Virus record (IMG/VR): IMGVR_UViG_3300018486_000129
Span: 1 to 5,863 of that record
Reading direction: 5' to 3' (one strand)
Origin: a virus
Taxonomy: Duplodnaviria > Heunggongvirae > Uroviricota > Caudoviricetes
Length of the DNA: 5,863 nucleotides
Shown here: piece by piece, positions 1 to 5,863 of the stretch
How positions within the stretch are numbered: position 1 is the first letter of the stretch
How the letters are laid out: every line of letters starts with the position of its first letter
Made by a program: the position numbers and the translations under genes
Notes under the pieces: generated by a model
Told to the model about the DNA's origin: nothing
The model's database searches: none
Seen by the model: the letters and a program-made list of their open reading frames with translations, nothing else

Positions 1-158
1 ACAATCTCATTCAGGCACTCTTTGGCTGCCTCATCGTGACTTTTTCCGTATGCTTCATGGAGGACTTTCATCCTCATCATTGCTCCGTCACACATAATCG
101 AAAGCGCGTAAAGCACATCACTAATCGCCATTTCTTTTTTGGTGCTTGTCGAAGGCAT
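1..158 (-). CDS. Hypothetical protein, 5' part only (runs off the left edge of the window)
   Basis: Minus-strand frame open from ATG at 158..156 to position 1 (MPSTSTKKEMAISDVLYALSIMCDGAMMRMKVLHEAYGKSHDEAAKECLNEI...). GGAG at 170..167 lies 8 nt upstream of the ATG. Below the ORF-track length cut-off because it is truncated. Confidence 0.3.
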   Translation of the reverse strand, partial: MPSTSTKKEMAISDVLYALSIMCDGAMMRMKVLHEAYGKSHDEAAKECLNEI

Positions 159-183
159 CCCATGTTCTCCTTTGTCTGGATGT

Positions 184-209
184 AAAAAAGCCCCGGCAAT
201 TGCCGAGGC
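184..209 (-). terminator. Rho-independent terminator ending the 89-aa/66-aa operon
   Basis: Minus-strand RNA GCCUCGGC-AAUU-GCCGGGGC followed by UUUUUU (plus-strand A-run 184..189). 8-bp GC-rich stem with one U.G wobble that would be a C.A mismatch on the plus strand. Sits 24 nt downstream of the stop at 233. Confidence 0.55.
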
Positions 210-232
210 TCGTTGTTCGTTATCGTTACGGT

Positions 233-433
233 TTAATGCTCGCGTCGTCCGGCGACAACTTCGGATTTGTATTTCAGGTCGCCCAGCAAGAATTGCAGTT
301 TAAGCATCTTTGCCGCCGTGTAGTTTCCTGATTCCACAACCTCTTTCATGAGGTCATAAACGGCCGCAACATCATCAGCCAGGAACTCTTTGCGTTGCTG
401 CTCAGTCGCACGTTTGAAGGAAATACGCATCAC
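233..433 (-). CDS. Hypothetical small protein (65-66 aa), second gene of a coupled pair
   Basis: ORF-track frame 233..433. AGGAG at 445..441 precedes GTG 433 (7-nt spacer) and ATG 430 (10-nt spacer). The ATG overlaps the upstream TGA stop as TGATG. No family recognised. Confidence 0.5.
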   Translation of the reverse strand: MMRISFKRATEQQRKEFLADDVAAVYDLMKEVVESGNYTAAKMLKLQFLLGDLKYKSEVVAGRREH

Positions 434-699
434 TCATCATCTCCTGCCGCACATACAACCTCACAAAAAACATCAGCGGAATGTTTCTTTTTGAATGAAT
501 GGCGCTCAAAACCGCACTCAATATCAGGCGCAAAAACATCCACCACATACGGTCTTTCAGAATGTTTGTTTTCCCAACGATAAACCGTAGTGACGTTGAA
601 ATGTTTTAACGCTTCACGGAACTCAACGCTGCCCGTCAGGTTTTTTGAGGTCAGGTATTGCAGGAGGTTTTTTACTACTTCACGGTCTTGTACTTTCAT
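430..699 (-). CDS. Hypothetical protein (89 aa), first gene of a coupled pair
   Basis: ORF 430..699 with GGAG about 8 nt upstream of ATG 699. Stop overlaps the start of the 66-aa gene. No family recognised. Confidence 0.5.
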   Translation of the reverse strand: MKVQDREVVKNLLQYLTSKNLTGSVEFREALKHFNVTTVYRWENKHSERPYVVDVFAPDIECGFERHSFKKKHSADVFCEVVCAAGDDE

Positions 700-749
700 C
701 GGGTTATCTCCGGTTTAACCAGGGCGGGTATCGCTCGGTTTCGGGTATA

Positions 750-778
750 ACCATAGGAAATTTTTTCCCACCTGTAAA
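750..778 (-). promoter_or_regulatory. Candidate sigma70 promoter for the 89-aa/66-aa operon
   Basis: Minus strand reads TTTACA (778..773), 17-nt spacer, TATGGT (755..750), about 45 nt upstream of ATG 699, inside an AT-rich intergenic stretch. Hexamer match by eye only. Confidence 0.3.
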
Positions 779-794
779 GCACTTTTTATATAAA

Positions 795-808
795 TATATA
801 ATTATATA
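795..808. repeat. Perfect 14-bp AT-only palindrome TATATAATTATATA
   Basis: Read directly; it is its own reverse complement. Lies just after the methyltransferase stop and 16 bp upstream of the candidate -35. A related 12-bp copy is at 1930..1941. Confidence 0.6.
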
Positions 809-811
809 ATT

Positions 812-1399
812 CTATGCCACTTGCCAGAGAGCATCATGCAACTGGATACCTCCATTGCACTGGTTGCCCCAGCCATGCCAACCATCAGGTAAATCACCGC
901 GAGCAAACAGCTCAATACGAGGAACATCACCTAACAGCCTTACCAGCTTGTCACGAACCACATCAGGCTTCCGAGAATGCTCCAGACGAGGCGATGTAAA
1001 CGACTGAATGATCCCCGCATCAAGGCGGGTCGGCAATTTGCCTTTTACCGCAAACAAGCAATCTTCACTGTTTGCACGAGTCATATGCCCCATCCCCATC
1101 ACCAGCTTATCTGGTTGTCGGCTACCACATTTGTTCCATGTGAAGCCCTTCATGGTCATAAGCCTGAATCCCCATGCTTTCACCACCAGCAACGCTTCTT
1201 CTGGCTGAGTCGGAACCCACCACATGGCCAACAAACACGATTCAGGATTAGCAAGCTGCCAGACAGGAATACGAGCAATATCCTCAGCTTTCATCGTTGG
1301 ATACTTAAAACCAGCTCCACGATTCCCATCCTTACACTTATCTTTGTATTCCCAGGGGGGATCTGCATAAATCAGATTAAACAATGCAATTGCCTCCAT
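812..1399 (-). CDS. DNA N6-adenine methyltransferase, MT-A70-like (orphan, no restriction partner in window)
   Basis: 195-aa ORF with N-terminal ADPPWEY (DPPW catalytic motif of N6-adenine methyltransferases) and overall resemblance to phage Dam/MT-A70-like enzymes. GGAGG about 10 nt upstream of ATG 1399. Confidence 0.8.
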   Translation of the reverse strand: MEAIALFNLIYADPPWEYKDKCKDGNRGAGFKYPTMKAEDIARIPVWQLANPESCLLAMWWVPTQPEEALLVVKAWGFRLMTMKGFTWNKCGSRQPDKLVMGMGHMTRANSEDCLFAVKGKLPTRLDAGIIQSFTSPRLEHSRKPDVVRDKLVRLLGDVPRIELFARGDLPDGWHGWGNQCNGGIQLHDALWQVA

Positions 1400-1642
1400 G
1401 TTAGTTGTGCCTCCGGCGCTTATCTCCGGCAGTCATAACGCTGGCCAGCTCTACAGCAAACACAACGAAAAGGGCACTAACCAGACTGATTAATGCCCTT
1501 GCCTGTTGTGTGCCGGATATCGCCCGACAACGCTGTTTTGGTAACACGGCTACAGTTCCGTGCCGCTCCAGCTTTTACCCCTTTGCGGATAACAGGCCCT
1601 GCCTGTAACTTAGCCCCACGTTCGCCCGAAATGCGCACCAGG

Positions 1643-1697
1643 CACGCATAAAGATGAGCACGAAGAAGTAACTCCACCGAGCTTATCTTTATGTGTG
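1643..1697. repeat. Long inverted repeat (17-bp stem, 21-nt loop) just downstream of the tRNA
   Basis: 1643..1659 pairs with 1681..1697; core cataaagatgagc / gcttatctttatg. Two G.T positions (G.U in plus-sense RNA). No U-run on either side, so not a canonical intrinsic terminator. Confidence 0.5.
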
Positions 1698-1706
1698 AGA
1701 GTGAAT

Positions 1707-1782
1707 TGGTGGCCCCTACCGGATTTGAACCGATGACCGTGCGATTATGAGTCGCCTGCTCTAACCACTGAGCTAAGGGGCC
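1707..1782 (-). tRNA. tRNA with CAU anticodon, most like tRNA-Ile2 (lysidine, AUA-decoding)
   Basis: Minus strand reads GGCCCCTTAGCTCAGTGGTTAGAGCAGGCGACTCATAATCGCACGGTCATCGGTTCAAATCCGGTAGGGGCCACCA. 7-bp acceptor stem, D-arm GCTC/GAGC, anticodon loop CTCATAA, T-arm ATCGG/CCGGT with TTCAAAT loop, encoded CCA. Acceptor stem GGCCCCU and anticodon arm match host ileX-type tRNA as recalled from memory; elongator tRNA-Met is not excluded. Confidence 0.9.
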
Positions 1783-1808
1783 ATATTTGATTTGTTTGTC
1801 TGGTGTGG

Positions 1809-1859
1809 CGCCGCGCACGAAAATCCCAGCCAATAAATTCAGGATTTTTGGGCGCGGCG
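1809..1859. repeat. Long inverted repeat (18-bp stem, 15-nt loop) just upstream of the tRNA
   Basis: 1809..1826 pairs with 1842..1859 (cgccgcgcacgaaaatcc / ggatttttgggcgcggcg), 16 of 18 Watson-Crick plus one G.T. GC-rich base, A/T-rich top. No flanking U-run. Confidence 0.5.
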
Positions 1860-1929
1860 GCATATCAGACAAACATGGTTGATGCGTGCGCCCATGAGAA
1901 AAGCGCATAGAATGTTGTAACTATATATT

Positions 1930-1941
1930 TATATAATTATA
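1930..1941. repeat. 12-bp AT-only palindrome TATATAATTATA, second copy
   Basis: Perfect palindrome in the AT-rich gap between the Rz1 stop (1952) and the tRNA. Confidence 0.5.
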
Positions 1942-1951
1942 GAAATATATA

Positions 1952-2161
1952 TTACTTTCGGCAGTTGATTTCCCATGCCCTGTTATGAGCCAGAATATCT
2001 TTCTTTGTCTGGCGGTCCATAACATCGATGTCGTGATCAGTCAGGTAGATGGGCTTTACCCAATCACAGGCGGTATCAACCACCACCGGGACGCTTCCAC
2101 GACTCCCGCAGCTCGCGATCAACATCGTCATCAGCCATATGGTTAACACTCTGCTGTACAT
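1952..2161 (-). CDS. Rz1-like o-spanin (outer-membrane lipoprotein), overlapping the 3' end of Rz in another frame
   Basis: 69-aa ORF MYSRVLTIWLMTMLIASCGS... with a lipoprotein-type signal peptide and lipobox IASC. Strong RBS AGAGGTGGGG about 5 nt upstream of ATG 2161. Overlaps Rz by 86 nt. Not proline-rich, so the call is tentative. Confidence 0.55.
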   Translation of the reverse strand: MYSRVLTIWLMTMLIASCGSRGSVPVVVDTACDWVKPIYLTDHDIDVMDRQTKKDILAHNRAWEINCRK

Positions 2162-2354
2162 TCCCCACCTCTTTTATCACTTCTATACGCCGCTCCGCAG
2201 TGGCTTTTACGGCGGCTGCATTCTCATTAATGCGCTGCTTTTCAGCTTCATCTTCGGCCTTTTCTCGCCCCTTCATACGACCAAAACCAAACGCGCCAAA
2301 TGCAACCAATATAATTGTGCCAATAAATGACAAAACGGCCTTCAAACCAGTCAT
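2076..2354 (-). CDS. Rz-like i-spanin (N-terminal transmembrane helix plus charged coiled-coil domain)
   Basis: 92-aa ORF with hydrophobic N-terminus LKAVLSFIGTIILVAFGAFGFG followed by a charged, helix-prone region. ATG 2354 overlaps the endolysin stop as ATGA. Sits directly after the endolysin. Confidence 0.6.
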   Translation of the reverse strand: MTGLKAVLSFIGTIILVAFGAFGFGRMKGREKAEDEAEKQRINENAAAVKATAERRIEVIKEVGNVQQSVNHMADDDVDRELRESWKRPGGG

Positions 2355-2893
2355 ACCACCACTCGCTCTTTCATCCAGCCGTAGACAAACGACTCATTAG
2401 CCTCGCGCTTCTCCGCCAACTCCAGATAGCGTTCGCCCTGCGTACAGTTCAGCGACGTCAGCATCACCCGTTCGCCGTCTTTTCCCCGATTCCCAAGATA
2501 AGCACGCAGCGCATTAATGGTACGTGGACCGATTCGTCCGTCTGCATCCAAATCGGGATACAGCTTCCCACGCAGGTTGAACACATTCAGCCAGCGTTGA
2601 AGCATTTTTGACGCCACTGTTGGCCCCATGTTGACGCCCGTGTCGCACAGTTCTGCGGCAATATCCGGCGACAGAGTTGCTATCTGGTCAAAACGTGGGC
2701 CGTACCAGTAATCAGCCTCAAGGATTTCCAGAGCCTGTTCGCGAGTTAAATCGCGCATATCGCCACGGTATCCATGAGCACGGGCAGTGTTCTGAGTAAT
2801 GCCCCACTTTGTTGGGCCTCCCTTGTCGTCAGGGTGATCCACATAGCCGCCCTCTTTTCCAAGAATGCTGTTAAAAATCTCATCTTTGGTCAT
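2351..2893 (-). CDS. Endolysin, GH108-like N-terminal domain with PG_binding_3-like C-terminal domain
   Basis: 180-aa ORF. N-terminus ILGKEGGYVDHPDDKGGPTKWGIT matches the GH108 signature and the C-terminal half resembles the PG_binding_3 peptidoglycan-binding domain. No N-terminal hydrophobic SAR segment. Start overlaps the upstream gene by 14 nt. Confidence 0.85.
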   Translation of the reverse strand: MTKDEIFNSILGKEGGYVDHPDDKGGPTKWGITQNTARAHGYRGDMRDLTREQALEILEADYWYGPRFDQIATLSPDIAAELCDTGVNMGPTVASKMLQRWLNVFNLRGKLYPDLDADGRIGPRTINALRAYLGNRGKDGERVMLTSLNCTQGERYLELAEKREANESFVYGWMKERVVV

Positions 2894-3176
2894 GATTAAA
2901 CCCTAATGCGTCAACTATCCGCGCCAGATTGCCCCTGAAATACAGAACAACGATGCAGATAATCAGATTTCCAATAACCACCAGCCAGTGGGATTCTTGA
3001 TAAAGACCGAACACATAACGGAAGGGAACATTGGCGTATACAATGACGTAGATATAAGCCAGAAAGGAAACAAATGGACGATGCCTGGAGTCTTTCCGTC
3101 GATAAAGCATCAGCGCAATTACTATTACTGTGCAAAGCACCGCATTAATCAGTGCTGACGGGTCACTGCTTACCAT
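2880..3176 (-). CDS. Small three-helix membrane protein, possible second holin or antiholin
   Basis: Three hydrophobic helices in about 98 aa. Start chosen at ATG 3176 (MVSSDPSALI...) because GGAGGGGG lies 5-6 nt upstream; the ORF-track start at 3212 has no such RBS. Confidence 0.55.
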   Translation of the reverse strand: MVSSDPSALINAVLCTVIVIALMLYRRKDSRHRPFVSFLAYIYVIVYANVPFRYVFGLYQESHWLVVIGNLIICIVVLYFRGNLARIVDALGFNHDQR

Positions 3177-3558
3177 TTGAACCCCCTCCACGTAAGCGGG
3201 AAAGCATTCCAAAGATGCTACCGAGATCCTGGCTGTTTACGAACGTGAGGATTTTAATTGTCAATGCAGCCACAATAACCGCACCAAGCGCATCCAGAGG
3301 ACGATCGTTGTAGCTGGTCCATTTGGCAAGAAATGAGCCAACTAACGGCGCTCCAATCACTCCAACAATGAACGATGTAAAGAAATAGCCAATCAGCTTG
3401 AGACGGCTAATATTCACCGCTGTAGCAACATAGAAAACAGCGCCAGCAAATGCCCCGAATACAACGCCGTAATCAATACCAGTTGCAATACCAAAAACGC
3501 TGGCACCCATCAGGCCACCAGCAGCAACGGCCGTACCGGAAATTGGTTCTGCTGACAT
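3163..3558 (-). CDS. Putative holin (131 aa, about four transmembrane segments)
   Basis: Highly hydrophobic Gly/Ala-rich helices with a short charged C-terminal tail. First gene of the lysis cassette. RBS GAGGA 5 nt upstream of ATG 3558. Confidence 0.65.
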   Translation of the reverse strand: MSAEPISGTAVAAGGLMGASVFGIATGIDYGVVFGAFAGAVFYVATAVNISRLKLIGYFFTSFIVGVIGAPLVGSFLAKWTSYNDRPLDALGAVIVAALTIKILTFVNSQDLGSIFGMLSRLRGGGSNGKQ

Positions 3559-3571
3559 TGAAATCCTCGTT

Positions 3572-3604
3572 AAAAAAAAAGCCCCGCCGAAAAAGGCAGG
3601 GCTT
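3572..3604 (-). terminator. Rho-independent terminator directly upstream of the holin RBS (tR'-like)
   Basis: Minus-strand RNA AAGCCCUGCC-UUUUUC-GGCGGGGCUU followed by nine U (plus-strand A-run 3572..3580). Stem has one U.G wobble that would be a C.A mismatch on the plus strand. Confidence 0.65.
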
Positions 3605-3937
3605 CATAAAGCAACAAATTACGCGGTAATCGCTTAACGCAGTTTTACTACGTTAAATGAAACACTACACCCAGTTACCACCTAAAACAAGGCTTCCCCA
3701 TAAAAAAACCTTCATTCTGTGGTTAACTGATCAATAAAAAAACAATACTCAACTTTTTACCAACCGAACATCCCGACCAGGACTTCCATAATATTCGCCG
3801 ATATGCCACTGCTTAAGTTGAGTAATCTTCTCCAACTTAACGCCCATAGAGTCCAGTTTCTGCCATGTTTTCGGTTGTATGTGCTTCATTACCCGCTCTG
3901 AATATCTGAATACTGCTCGTAAGCGCATGGCTTCTCA
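3605..3937 (-). promoter_or_regulatory. Non-coding leader upstream of the lysis cassette; candidate late promoter and short terminated leader RNA
   Basis: About 335 bp with no ORF of 60 aa or more on the minus strand, AT-rich in places, ending in the terminator. No confident -35/-10 pair could be assigned by eye. Confidence 0.35.
3813..3840. repeat. Inverted repeat TTAAGTTG-N12-CAACTTAA in the leader
   Basis: Perfect 8-bp arms at 3813..3820 and 3833..3840 separated by 12 bp. No adjacent U-run. Confidence 0.4.
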
Positions 3938-4129
3938 CTACAGCTTATATAAGTGGTTTTTCCAGCGGTTTTGCGCCGCGCTGCGCTTATCTTTGACTCC
4001 CTCTCTGGCAATTCCAAAAAATGAGAACAACACCACACGACGATTGCTAACTCTCAACCACTGGCTGGGATAGCAAAGCCTGTATACTCGCGAAATAATC
4101 ATCCTGGCTTTACGATTGTTGGTTGCCAT
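3938..4129 (-). CDS. Small basic hypothetical protein (63 aa)
   Basis: Strong RBS AGGAG 6 nt upstream of ATG 4129, which lies 1 nt after the upstream TGA stop. Arg/Lys-rich. No family recognised; a plus-strand ORF overlaps it, so coding status is uncertain. Confidence 0.4.
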   Translation of the reverse strand: MATNNRKARMIISRVYRLCYPSQWLRVSNRRVVLFSFFGIAREGVKDKRSAAQNRWKNHLYKL

Positions 4130-4130
4130 A

Positions 4131-4802
4131 TCACTCTCCTTTTATGCGAATGCCAGCGGCGCGCTCGGCTTCACTTTGTTCCCAAAACCACTTATGAAGC
4201 TCCATGAGCTTTTCGTCAATCGGTGCATATTTGCGATTAAAGTAGGCCTGAGCATCTTTCTCAGATTCGTCCGGCAATTCGCCTGGGCCAAACAGTGTGT
4301 TATAAATCCATGCCAGTCCGCTCTTAGCGTCGCCAGTTGCCTGCCATTCGATAATCGCAGCCTGCATGACAAGAATGTTTTTCCCGATTAATAGGTCCAG
4401 TTCTTTGAACCGGTTGCGGATGTATGCATTCTCGCTTTGTAATTTTGCGTTGCGCTTCTCTGCGGCTTCCAGCTCAACACGCAGCTTCCCTACCGTTAGC
4501 GCAATATCCTCGTTCTCCTGGTCACGGCTTTTGATGTATTGCAGGTTTCTTTCCCGTTCATCCAGCAGTGCCTGCACTACTTCAGGGTTGAAAGCTGCGA
4601 TATAACGAGCGTTGTTCTCTGCGTTTTTCTGTTCGTCGAATCCAGGCCAGTCGACAATATCTCCGTGATGATTATCTCCTGGTGTGTGCACAGCGTACGT
4701 GCCGTGTTTGCCCGGCGAAATAAATGCGACCCATTCGCCCTGTGTTGCCTGTTTTGCTATCTCACGTAGCGCCTGATAGTTAATTGCTGTGCTGTTAGTC
4801 AT
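4131..4802 (-). CDS. Ead/Ea22-like family protein (about 223 aa)
   Basis: Start set at ATG 4802 (MTNSTAINYQALREIAKQATQGEWVAF...), which has GGAGG 6 nt upstream and matches the conserved Ead/Ea22-like N-terminal motif as recalled from memory. The ORF-track start at 4847 lies inside the upstream gene. Central coiled-coil-like region. Confidence 0.6.
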   Translation of the reverse strand: MTNSTAINYQALREIAKQATQGEWVAFISPGKHGTYAVHTPGDNHHGDIVDWPGFDEQKNAENNARYIAAFNPEVVQALLDERERNLQYIKSRDQENEDIALTVGKLRVELEAAEKRNAKLQSENAYIRNRFKELDLLIGKNILVMQAAIIEWQATGDAKSGLAWIYNTLFGPGELPDESEKDAQAYFNRKYAPIDEKLMELHKWFWEQSEAERAAGIRIKGE

Positions 4803-5139
4803 TCCAGGCCTCCAGCTCGTTCTGAATCTCCTCGTCAACCTCGTCATTGGTGGCGTCTTCGTTCAGATGGTCGCGCGCCTCTTTGAGATACTGTTCACGG
4901 CGTTCGTGGTACCAGGCTGAGAACTCCGGCGACCATCCTCGATTAGCCCCCTGAAAATCTACCATCGCATTATCCTCGGCCATACGCTCGACCATGCAAT
5001 CCGCGGTGTTCAGTGCAACCTCACGGATGTACCCCCGCAGGTCGCGCTTACGCCAATACGGGCTATATTTTGAGTCGCAGCGGCCTTTAAATTCGACGGT
5101 CCAGCGACGGATGCAGCGTGCGTTAAGTGATTTGCTCAT
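4795..5139 (-). CDS. Hypothetical protein (114 aa), basic Cys-containing N-terminus and acidic C-terminal tail
   Basis: RBS AGGAAG 7 nt upstream of ATG 5139. Stop overlaps the Ea22-like start by 8 nt. No family recognised. Confidence 0.55.
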   Translation of the reverse strand: MSKSLNARCIRRWTVEFKGRCDSKYSPYWRKRDLRGYIREVALNTADCMVERMAEDNAMVDFQGANRGWSPEFSAWYHERREQYLKEARDHLNEDATNDEVDEEIQNELEAWND

Positions 5140-5141
5140 AG

Positions 5142-5810
5142 TTATGCTTCCTGAATACGCTTAAACTCAATTACCCATACCCACGGGTTAGATAGCCAGT
5201 TCTCTTGCCCGTAAATACCGCGCCAGATATCACCAAAGCCAACGCGATAAACAGCTTCCGGCGGTGTAATCTTGTACGTCGCCGGAGATGCGCCTTCCGC
5301 TTTAGCATCTGCCTCGCTCATGTCATGCAGCCGTTCCACACGCACGTCGGTAATTTCCAACAGAATGCGTGATGCCCATCGCGGCATGTGAATTGATGGA
5401 CGCCACCCACCATCAAACTTTTCATTCACAGTGTGAGGTTTCCAGTCGGCATCATCGGGTATCGACCACAAGCCGTAATCACCAGGCTTTTGCTCACAAC
5501 TGGCCCGATAAATCCTTGCTGCGTTCTTCTCATCGCCACGACAAAGGTTGTCGTTCCAGTCCACACTGCAACCATCCTCATTGCCTAATATCGCCCACGC
5601 CTCGCGGACCCATATGCGATCACCAACGTTACCGAACGGGCATAAACCATGTTCCGGTGCATCCATAACGTGGGTATAGACACCATTGCGTTTCTTTGTC
5701 GGTTTACGGATAACCAGGCAGTTATCGGCCCTGACATTTTTTACAGGTCGGCGAGTCTGCGTTTTCCTTCCTTCGAGGATGGCCCGGACCATCTCATCGT
5801 TAAAAATCAT
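5142..5810 (-). CDS. ASCH-domain (PUA-like fold) protein, about 222 aa
   Basis: Start set at ATG 5810 (MIFNDEMVRAILEGRKTQTRRPV...) because the ORF-track start at 5837 is a GTG whose first codons contain the likely RBS. N-terminal GRKTQTRR...GDRIWVRE and C-terminal VWVIEFKRI resemble the ASCH signature (compare E. coli YqfB, from memory). Confidence 0.65.
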   Translation of the reverse strand: MIFNDEMVRAILEGRKTQTRRPVKNVRADNCLVIRKPTKKRNGVYTHVMDAPEHGLCPFGNVGDRIWVREAWAILGNEDGCSVDWNDNLCRGDEKNAARIYRASCEQKPGDYGLWSIPDDADWKPHTVNEKFDGGWRPSIHMPRWASRILLEITDVRVERLHDMSEADAKAEGASPATYKITPPEAVYRVGFGDIWRGIYGQENWLSNPWVWVIEFKRIQEA

Positions 5811-5863
5811 GCCGCGCTCTTTCACTCTCCCTCCCACGTTTTCAGACTTTCACCACAAAACGG

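Follow-up and report, generated by a model that had tools for sequence, protein, structure and literature searches.

A candidate Q-type antiterminator encoded several kilobases from the late leader in a family of 48-kb phage-plasmids

Introduction

Phage antiterminators of the Q type and their relatives act at late leaders with a recurrent layout. In the published Q and AlpA cassettes, the binding element lies between the -35 and -10 elements, the transcript begins with a sigma-dependent pause element, and a terminator precedes the late genes (PMC9371919; bioRxiv 10.1101/651190). AlpA of Pseudomonas aeruginosa is a Q-like antiterminator of the lysis genes alpBCDE (PMC7969949, PMC9371919). Here, we analyze a late leader of comparable layout in a stretch of 5,863 nucleotides (nt) from a virus of the Caudoviricetes (IMG/VR record IMGVR_UViG_3300018486_000129, positions 1 to 5,863), hereafter called the window. 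An earlier note on this DNA reported no recognizable Q among four genes upstream of the leader, which code for an ASCH-like protein, a 114-amino-acid (aa) protein, an Ead/Ea22-like protein and a basic 63-aa protein. The best candidate is found elsewhere: we propose, with a probability of about 0.55, that p125, a 125-aa early protein encoded beyond the right edge of the window, is a Q-type antiterminator that acts on this leader.

Judging from database matches, the source element of the window is a phage-plasmid of ~48 kilobases (kb) of the Escherichia coli/Yersinia myovirus type, since both E. coli plasmids and infective Yersinia phages match it. Circular E. coli plasmids of ~48 kb match with 96-98% identity over 85-99% of the length of the window, and three Yersinia pestis myophages, vB_YpM_39, vB_YpM_41 and vB_YpM_44, match as well. 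The element has RepA, ParA, a CI-like repressor and one long rightward operon, and its structural genes specify a lambda-gpA-like terminase, an HK97-type head and a P2-like tail. Our literature search found no paper on the 48-kb family or on the three phages. The name of the pSLy3 phage-plasmid group was considered for the family and dropped as wrong, pSLy3 belonging to the ~100-kb SSU5 supergroup. Every gene of the window lies on the minus strand, and the early operon meets the lysis and late genes within the window.

Anatomy of the Late Leader

The description of the leader as late-type in the earlier note holds in the respect that counts here. A strong intrinsic terminator stands at its end (Table 1), and the U-tract of this terminator ends 12 nt ahead of the ATG of the holin gene (3558). 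This leaves no room for a promoter, and the lysis genes are therefore expected to be transcribed only by read-through. In the Salmonella and Citrobacter types of the family a terminator is found at the same place with a different stem sequence. Two further strong terminators follow in the direction of transcription, so that three stand in series ahead of the structural genes. With one strong terminator before the holin gene and two more in line, processive antitermination would be needed, and from this anatomy some form of antitermination is expected at the leader.

Upstream of the terminator lies a 56-nt core that is almost identical in members from E. coli, Salmonella, Citrobacter and metagenomes, while its flanks are ~70% identical; ~45 variable nt separate it from the terminator. 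One and the same core precedes two unrelated lysis cassettes, composed either of Phage_holin_8, holin_3_7, GH108 and Rz genes or of genes for a 92-97-aa protein, a Phage_lysozyme protein and a 184-aa protein (examples are the loci L004 4404-5777, L017 10416-11781 and L024 691-2167). The recombination joint between the cassette types falls between core and terminator. The core occurs once per 48.8-kb plasmid, as would be expected of a single Q-type loading site and not of the regulon of an activator with several promoters. Read by eye, it accommodates a putative promoter and a putative pause element (Table 1), and it holds a weak direct-repeat similarity (GGTGGTAA and GGGTGTAG, 10 bp apart).

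At the RNA level one stem-loop of the leader is conserved. Compensatory change was seen in one of 27 predicted pairs; a U.G pair of the core hairpin becomes U-A in locus L021. An Rfam scan of the leader at E<=1 returned no antitermination family, although whether Rfam contains put was not verified, and no boxA-like element was recognized in the leader. The same scan gave a sub-threshold match to the small RNA GcvB over 3573-3728 on the minus strand (36.3 bits, gathering score 42, E 2e-5). As in GcvB, a hairpin is followed by a GU-rich stretch (GGUGUAGUGUUUCAUUU), by two more hairpins and by the terminator; the resemblance could be due to chance, or the terminated leader RNA could be a GcvB-like small RNA. 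A mini open reading frame (ORF) of eight codons (MGKPCFRW; 3676-3702, minus strand) with a ribosome-binding-like GAAGG overlaps the putative -35 element and the spacer. It was rejected as a conserved element: both the E. coli type and the Salmonella type keep it, but it is disrupted in the Citrobacter type and not conserved in, for example, L017. A putative hairpin GAAGG...CCTT was likewise dropped, as only three of its pairs are invariant.

The Early Protein p125 as Candidate Antiterminator

p125 (WP_001250512.1; NZ_CP070025.1 11245-11622, annotated as hypothetical) stood out by its resemblance, judged by eye, to QuuD and the Q protein of phage 21 (Q21) when the conserved early proteins encoded on the complete plasmid were read. 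Its gene lies 2.1-2.5 kb past the right edge of the window in all complete relatives, and always follows the genes for a Ref nuclease and a DUF1064 resolvase. The possibility, raised in the earlier note, that the antiterminator is encoded outside the window is thus the best-supported reading, although what is found there is not a canonical Q gene just past the edge.

Several lines of evidence, each weak to moderate, converge on p125. QuuD is homologous to Q21 (E 7.6e-7), and the p125 profile aligns collinearly with that of the QuuD family over 101 columns (E 0.018, hhalign probability 2.6%). The N-terminal motif ELWxxW(V/I)xxG of p125 matches Q21 over 13 columns with 46% identity (E 7e-4), and by eye a (T/S)R(C/P)(Q/M) motif and the acidic patch that follows it can be aligned too. 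Among 24 family members, one gave a weak match to PF06530 (E 0.074) and five gave weak matches to Sigma70_r4_2. An AlphaFold2 model of p125 built from 24 homologues reached a predicted local distance difference test score (pLDDT) of 77 and a predicted template modelling score (pTM) of 0.67. When this model was compared with 350,542 PDB chains by Foldseek, Q21 ranked first (6p1c, probability 0.92, query template modelling score (TMq) 0.50), followed by six further Q21 entries with TMq values of 0.44-0.54. The structural matches that span the full length of p125 are Q21 and AlpA, not sigma factors.

Conservation points in the same direction. Members from E. coli, Salmonella and Citrobacter share 90-93% identity in p125, the best-conserved early protein, compared to 52-77% for most others, and this high conservation parallels that of the near-invariant leader core. 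There are 61 plasmids with the leader and likewise 61 with p125 at 90% identity or more. More distant phage-plasmids, in which p125 is ~58-63% identical, are missing the leader core, and three distant p125-bearing phage-plasmids (L028-L030) have neither the core nor the small leader-adjacent gene gp59 described below. Diverged homologues (30-53% identity), all unannotated, occur in ~87 Vibrio phages and in plasmids of Serratia, Aeromonas, Edwardsiella and Pseudomonas. In the Vibrio phages, which have genomes of 34-41 kb, the gene always stands directly after the DUF1064 gene (e.g., L032 4989-5384).

On these grounds p125 is most likely a very divergent member or an analogue of the phage-21/QuuD type of Q. 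By analogy with Q21, it would consist of a sigma-region-4-like DNA-binding body and an N-terminal segment, would bind the invariant leader core, would engage RNA polymerase paused just past a weak sigma-70 promoter, and would then travel with the polymerase through the terminators. Between p125 and its target ~4-6 kb of genes would have accumulated, including a DUF3560 gene, a winged-helix protein gene and an ea-like mosaic to which the four genes belong. This accumulation of accessory genes would explain why no Q is found where Q normally sits.

A number of observations weigh against p125. On its own it does not match PF06530, and it scores below the threshold of the family model for Q of the Q21/Q933W type. 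No sequence method gave significant support for membership in a Q family, and p125 is left unnamed by Pfam, NCBIfam and PGAP. The Foldseek E-values of the Q21 matches are 0.4-1.3, the fold similarity owes much to the sigma-R4-like domain, a DNA-binding domain of common occurrence, and the structural neighbors of p125 in BFVD are unnamed small phage proteins. A distance of 4.3 kb in E. coli and up to 5.8 kb in Salmonella, filled by 8-14 genes, separates its gene from the leader downstream, and the gene that is physically linked to the leader is gp59. Furthermore, p125 is not on the contig of the window itself, so that its presence in the source element is deduced from relatives. The putative promoter is also weak, with three of six matches in each hexamer, and was not picked up by a consensus promoter scan of the leader.

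Other candidates were considered. The proteins encoded by the first two early genes, p164 and p171, were rejected after inspection of their sequences, p164 appearing as a Cro-type helix-turn-helix-like protein with an extra C-terminal domain and p171 as alpha/beta-like; PDB sequence searches with the two proteins gave nothing meaningful. Ten further early proteins from beyond the window had no match to a Q family, including the lambda type (PF03589) and the 82 type (PF06323), and none of the 70 features in the RefSeq annotation of the complete plasmid is named antiterminator. The Q-like gp62 of VP882 and the gp68 of the same phage are not related to p125.

Accessory Genes Upstream of the Leader

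The four genes highlighted in the earlier note are all present on the minus strand as described there, except that the ASCH-like gene starts with a GTG at 5837, the ATG at 5810 being internal. Its finding that none of them is a recognizable Q is confirmed by Pfam, PHROGs and NCBIfam. No match at E<=0.1 was obtained to the Pfam Q families PF03589, PF06530 and PF06323, nor any match to a functional PHROG or to any NCBIfam model. The 63-aa gene does not lie directly before the leader, as had been assumed, because gp59 is located inside the stretch that was treated as leader.

The presence and absence of the four genes was scored over 24 leader-bearing loci and three isolated phages. The ASCH-like gene is missing in L004, L006, L007 and L017, all of which keep the leader. 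The 114-aa gene is missing in vB_YpM_39, the plasmid of E. coli ATCC 25922 and the Salmonella and Citrobacter members, and the 63-aa gene is missing in vB_YpM_41, vB_YpM_44 and in the same plasmid and members; vB_YpM_41 and vB_YpM_44 were isolated as infective phages. Ead/Ea22-like genes differ in copy number and type among family members. In relatives that are without the 63-aa gene, the 114-aa gene or both, leader and terminator are 95-98% identical to those of the window (97% for the leader of the ATCC 25922 plasmid, which has neither), and the Salmonella and Citrobacter members keep the leader core although all four genes are missing. The mosaic accessory zone extends from a conserved winged-helix gene to the leader.

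The Ead/Ea22-like protein scores 117.7 bits against PF13935 (cut-off 27), while the ASCH-like protein stays below the gathering score of PF04266 (17.2 bits, cut-off 21.2, E 0.0087), its homologues carrying the RefSeq name "ASCH domain-containing protein". For the 114-aa protein no Pfam, NCBIfam or PDB-chain sequence match was found (PDB at E<=10); its homologues adjoin EaA, ASCH or GemA genes in Klebsiella lambdoid phages, E. coli phages and Mu-like phages. The 63-aa protein has no PDB-chain sequence match at E<=10, and its homologues lie with 93% identity at ~4-7 kb in many Stx phages, in the int/xis-ea22 region, with further ones in 933W, D6 and phiV10. Stx phages such as 933W that carry this homologue have their own Q. 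Because their occurrence varies across leader-bearing loci and isolated phages, the four genes are, on the basis of comparative genomics, exchangeable and dispensable cargo and not the cognate regulator of a conserved site.

The Leader-Adjacent Gene gp59

The ORF that directly precedes the leader, gp59, is a real gene under purifying selection. Its frame and protein are kept at 54-69% identity despite diverging DNA, and in the codons for FRYSER two members differ at six of 18 nt, with all six changes synonymous. A strong Shine-Dalgarno site, AAGGAGG, stands before it in L001 and L006, where its GTG start overlaps the upstream stop codon. The protein has an isoelectric point (pI) of 10.3 and an Arg-rich N-terminus (RxRxxFRYSER). 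It is confined to this phage-plasmid family, with matches in only 19 clusters among 5.8 billion proteins, and a profile search against 1.84 billion representatives yielded no true relatives, the extra matches being long repetitive proteins. In ~10 diverged loci, with either of the two unrelated lysis cassettes, gp59 is the last gene ahead of the leader. In three of 61 plasmids it is replaced by an unrelated gene of 91 aa, with the breakpoint exactly at its stop codon. Searches for Q families in Pfam at E<=0.1, for PDB sequences and for the N family gave no match to gp59, and its AlphaFold2 model, made from an alignment of 13 sequences, has a pLDDT of 53, which is too poor for use of the fold. 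Together, gp59 and the 56-nt core may form a compact module with a role in the late switch.

Alternative Explanations

The conservation of gp59 beside the leader invites the idea that gp59 itself is the late switch, either as a new small basic antitermination factor (N-like, at the position of Q) or as an essential co-factor that gives p125 its specificity, with a leader RNA that might double as a GcvB-like RNA. It could act as a DNA-bound loader on the adjacent core, or as an N-like protein that binds the core hairpin in the nascent RNA. Such a role would account for its position before either cassette and for the confinement of its family to exactly those elements that bear this leader; the purifying selection and the basic, Arg-rich N-terminus would also be understandable, the low AlphaFold2 confidence could reflect disorder of the kind found in lambda N, and the U-A pair of L021 hints at constraint on the RNA. 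However, at 59-71 aa gp59 is far below the size of known Q-type factors (162 aa for Q21 and 168 aa for the AlpA chain), neither families nor PDB sequences match it, its exchange in plasmids that keep the leader is the behavior of an exchangeable module, and the leader offers an N-like factor no identifiable boxA-like element. We therefore regard a leading part for gp59 as unlikely. Somewhat less likely again is that p125, with its sigma-region-4-like features, is a late activator or appropriator and that the terminator is passed by other means or by leakiness. This leaves unexplained why a strong terminator should follow the promoter at ~80 nt and precede the first late gene by 12 nt, with two more in line; the full-length matches of p125 to Q21 and AlpA and the single core per genome likewise speak against it.

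It is also conceivable that there is no dedicated antiterminator at all, the terminator ending the early operon and the upstream 150 nt perhaps being a stable small RNA derived from its 3' end, with a layout like that of GcvB. The lysis genes would then be expressed by leak-through of a few percent or by a rise in copy number after induction. The sub-threshold GcvB-like match (over 3728-3573) and the failure to find a consensus sigma-70 promoter in the leader would fit, but the GcvB match falls short of the curated threshold and draws on the terminator for its score, the invariance runs through positions that can be read as promoter elements, and with ~27 kb of structural genes behind a series of three strong terminators leak-through is implausible; we consider this explanation improbable. 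Even less is to be said for the proposal of the earlier note that the leader RNA alone makes polymerase terminator-resistant in the way of HK022 put, independently of a phage protein. A conserved hairpin with conserved flanks is what one would look for, yet there is one conserved stem against two in put, almost no covariation and no matching Rfam family, and a constitutive cis element directly upstream would make the terminator pointless. We give hardly any credence to any of the four accessory proteins (63-aa, 114-aa, Ea22-like, ASCH-like) as antiterminator. All that recommends them is that they are encoded near the leader in this window and that the 63-aa protein is basic, and the candidacy that the earlier note derived from the position of the 63-aa and 114-aa genes fails because each of the four is missing from viable phages or plasmids with near-identical leaders, and because homologues live in ea-type regions of phiV10 and of Stx, P1-like and Mu-like phages, the latter three with late regulators of their own. 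The 114-aa protein is moreover acidic and matches no Q family or PDB sequence.

The reading of p125 as a Q-type antiterminator is thus preferred. If it is correct, p125 either adds a fourth to the sequence families of Q-like factors or is a remote member of the Q21 family, and in both cases Pfam, NCBIfam, PGAP and PHROGs miss it. The family is widespread, with ~60 plasmids of E. coli, Salmonella and Klebsiella, including that of the reference strain ATCC 25922, the Yersinia phages, and in a distant form ~90 Vibrio phages. It would also follow that several kb of exchangeable accessory genes can come to lie between a Q gene and its loading site. In practice, a missing Q beside the lysis genes is no evidence for a new mechanism. 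The comparison of close relatives quickly tells backbone regulators from cargo, and gp59 with the invariant core offers a compact and testable module for the switch of a phage-plasmid to lysis.

Other Features of the Window

In the direction of transcription, the ASCH-like, 114-aa, Ead/Ea22-like and 63-aa genes are followed by gp59, a non-coding leader of ~190 nt, the first terminator and the lysis cassette. Downstream come a tRNA(CAU) gene, the second terminator, an MT-A70 methyltransferase gene, two small genes and the third terminator (Table 1).

Table 1. Positions of features in the window; promoter and pause elements are putative assignments
Feature	Position	Strand	Basis or remarks
ASCH-like accessory protein	5142..5837	-	231 aa; matches phrog_874; variable in family
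114-aa acidic accessory protein	4795..5139	-	3 Cys, pI 5.0; phrog_6675; not a Q
Ead/Ea22-like accessory protein	4131..4847	-	PF13935, E 7.6e-34
63-aa very basic accessory protein	3938..4129	-	pI 11.7; phrog_1380; not the leader-adjacent gene
gp59, small basic protein restricted to the family	3749..3928	-	59 aa here, 63-71 aa elsewhere; phrog_9594, E 8.6e-46
Upstream conserved leader block (TTGTTTTTTTATTGAYCRATTAACCAC)	3719..3744	-	alignments; holds an imperfect inverted repeat
Near-invariant 56-nt leader core	3636..3691	-	alignments across the family
Putative -35, TTGTTT	3690-3685	-	by eye
Spacer of 17 nt with near-invariant GGTGGTAAC	between putative -35 and -10	-	by eye
Putative -10, TAGTGT	3667-3662	-	by eye
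-10-like TAACGT at about +1 to +6	3655-3650	-	by eye
Hairpin AACGUAG-UAAAA-CUGCGUU, 7 bp, A-rich pentaloop	3654-3636	-	by eye and folding
Intrinsic terminator (tR'-like) with U-tract	3569..3605	-	hairpin 3605-3578, 11-bp stem, 9 U, -20.5 kcal/mol
First late/lysis gene, Phage_holin_8 holin	3163..3558	-	ORF and family matches
Rest of lysis cassette: Phage_holin_3_7 holin, GH108 endolysin, Rz/Rz1	following the first holin gene	-	
Second in-line intrinsic terminator	1470..1500	-	-19.4 kcal/mol; after tRNA, before MT-A70 gene; also in L002
Third in-line intrinsic terminator	188..211	-	-18.8 kcal/mol; also in L002

The tRNA with CAU anticodon (1707-1782, minus strand) is read as Met by ARAGORN and annotated as tRNA-Ile in the RefSeq entry of a near-identical plasmid. 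Directly upstream of it lies an inverted repeat with arms of 34 nt (1793-1875). Two AT-rich inverted repeats of 32 nt (786-817 and 1905-1936) are 88% complementary to each other and each partly palindromic; they flank the tRNA gene, a terminator and the MT-A70 methyltransferase gene, and may be the boundaries of a cassette or regulatory sites. Outside the window, L002 contains at 9218-9251 a perfect palindrome with a 14-bp stem between the divergent genes for the CI-like repressor and the Cro-like first early protein, which is probably an operator.

Comparison With Known Systems

The closest relatives of the proposed system are Q21 and QuuD (PF06530). p125 is similar in size to QuuD (125 compared to 127 aa), its best fold match in the whole PDB is Q21, and the N-terminal ELWxxW motif is common to p125 and Q21. 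The Q21 fold combines a sigma-R4-like helix-turn[loop]-helix body with an N-terminal segment that forms a ring; for p125 a sigma-R4-like DNA-binding body is predicted. In DLP12 the gene quuD follows rusA, and the p125 gene likewise comes after the gene for a Holliday-junction resolvase. In contrast to Q21, p125 has no significant sequence match to PF06530 and its function is predicted. The leader can be set beside the phage 21 cassette of PR', sigma-dependent pause element (SDPE) and tR', as here too a promoter-like core is separated from the lysis genes by a terminator, and an invariant element lies in the spacer of the putative promoter, with a -10-like hexamer at about +1 to +6; its layout, with the elements read by eye, also agrees with that of the published Q and AlpA cassettes in general. 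The Q-binding element (QBE) of phage 21 consists of two 8-bp direct repeats, whereas a direct-repeat QBE is not clearly recognizable here and the promoter is weak. Compared to p125, AlpA is larger (a PDB chain of 168 residues with 8 helices) and its gene adjoins the target operon, and p125 is closer to Q21.

Lambda N/nut and HK022 put bring about processive antitermination via an element in the transcript, and the conserved 7-bp hairpin with its A-rich pentaloop is reminiscent of such elements, as gp59 is of lambda N in being small, basic and Arg-rich at its N-terminus. The differences are the lack of a boxA and of an N-family match for gp59, the single conserved stem without support from covariation, and the position of the site, which is at the end of the early operon and not just after the early promoter. 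The four accessory genes resemble the "morons" of lambdoid ea/nin regions, since they are small, function-less by annotation, swapped among unrelated phages and variable between otherwise near-identical genomes. In the Q cassettes the Q gene stands immediately upstream of PR', an adjacency that the p125 gene does not share; here the Q-like gene is set apart from the late leader by an accessory zone, in a segment normally free of insertions. With p125 as the antiterminator, the mechanism would thus be a known one, while the form it takes in this family would be new, divergent and unusual in its arrangement.

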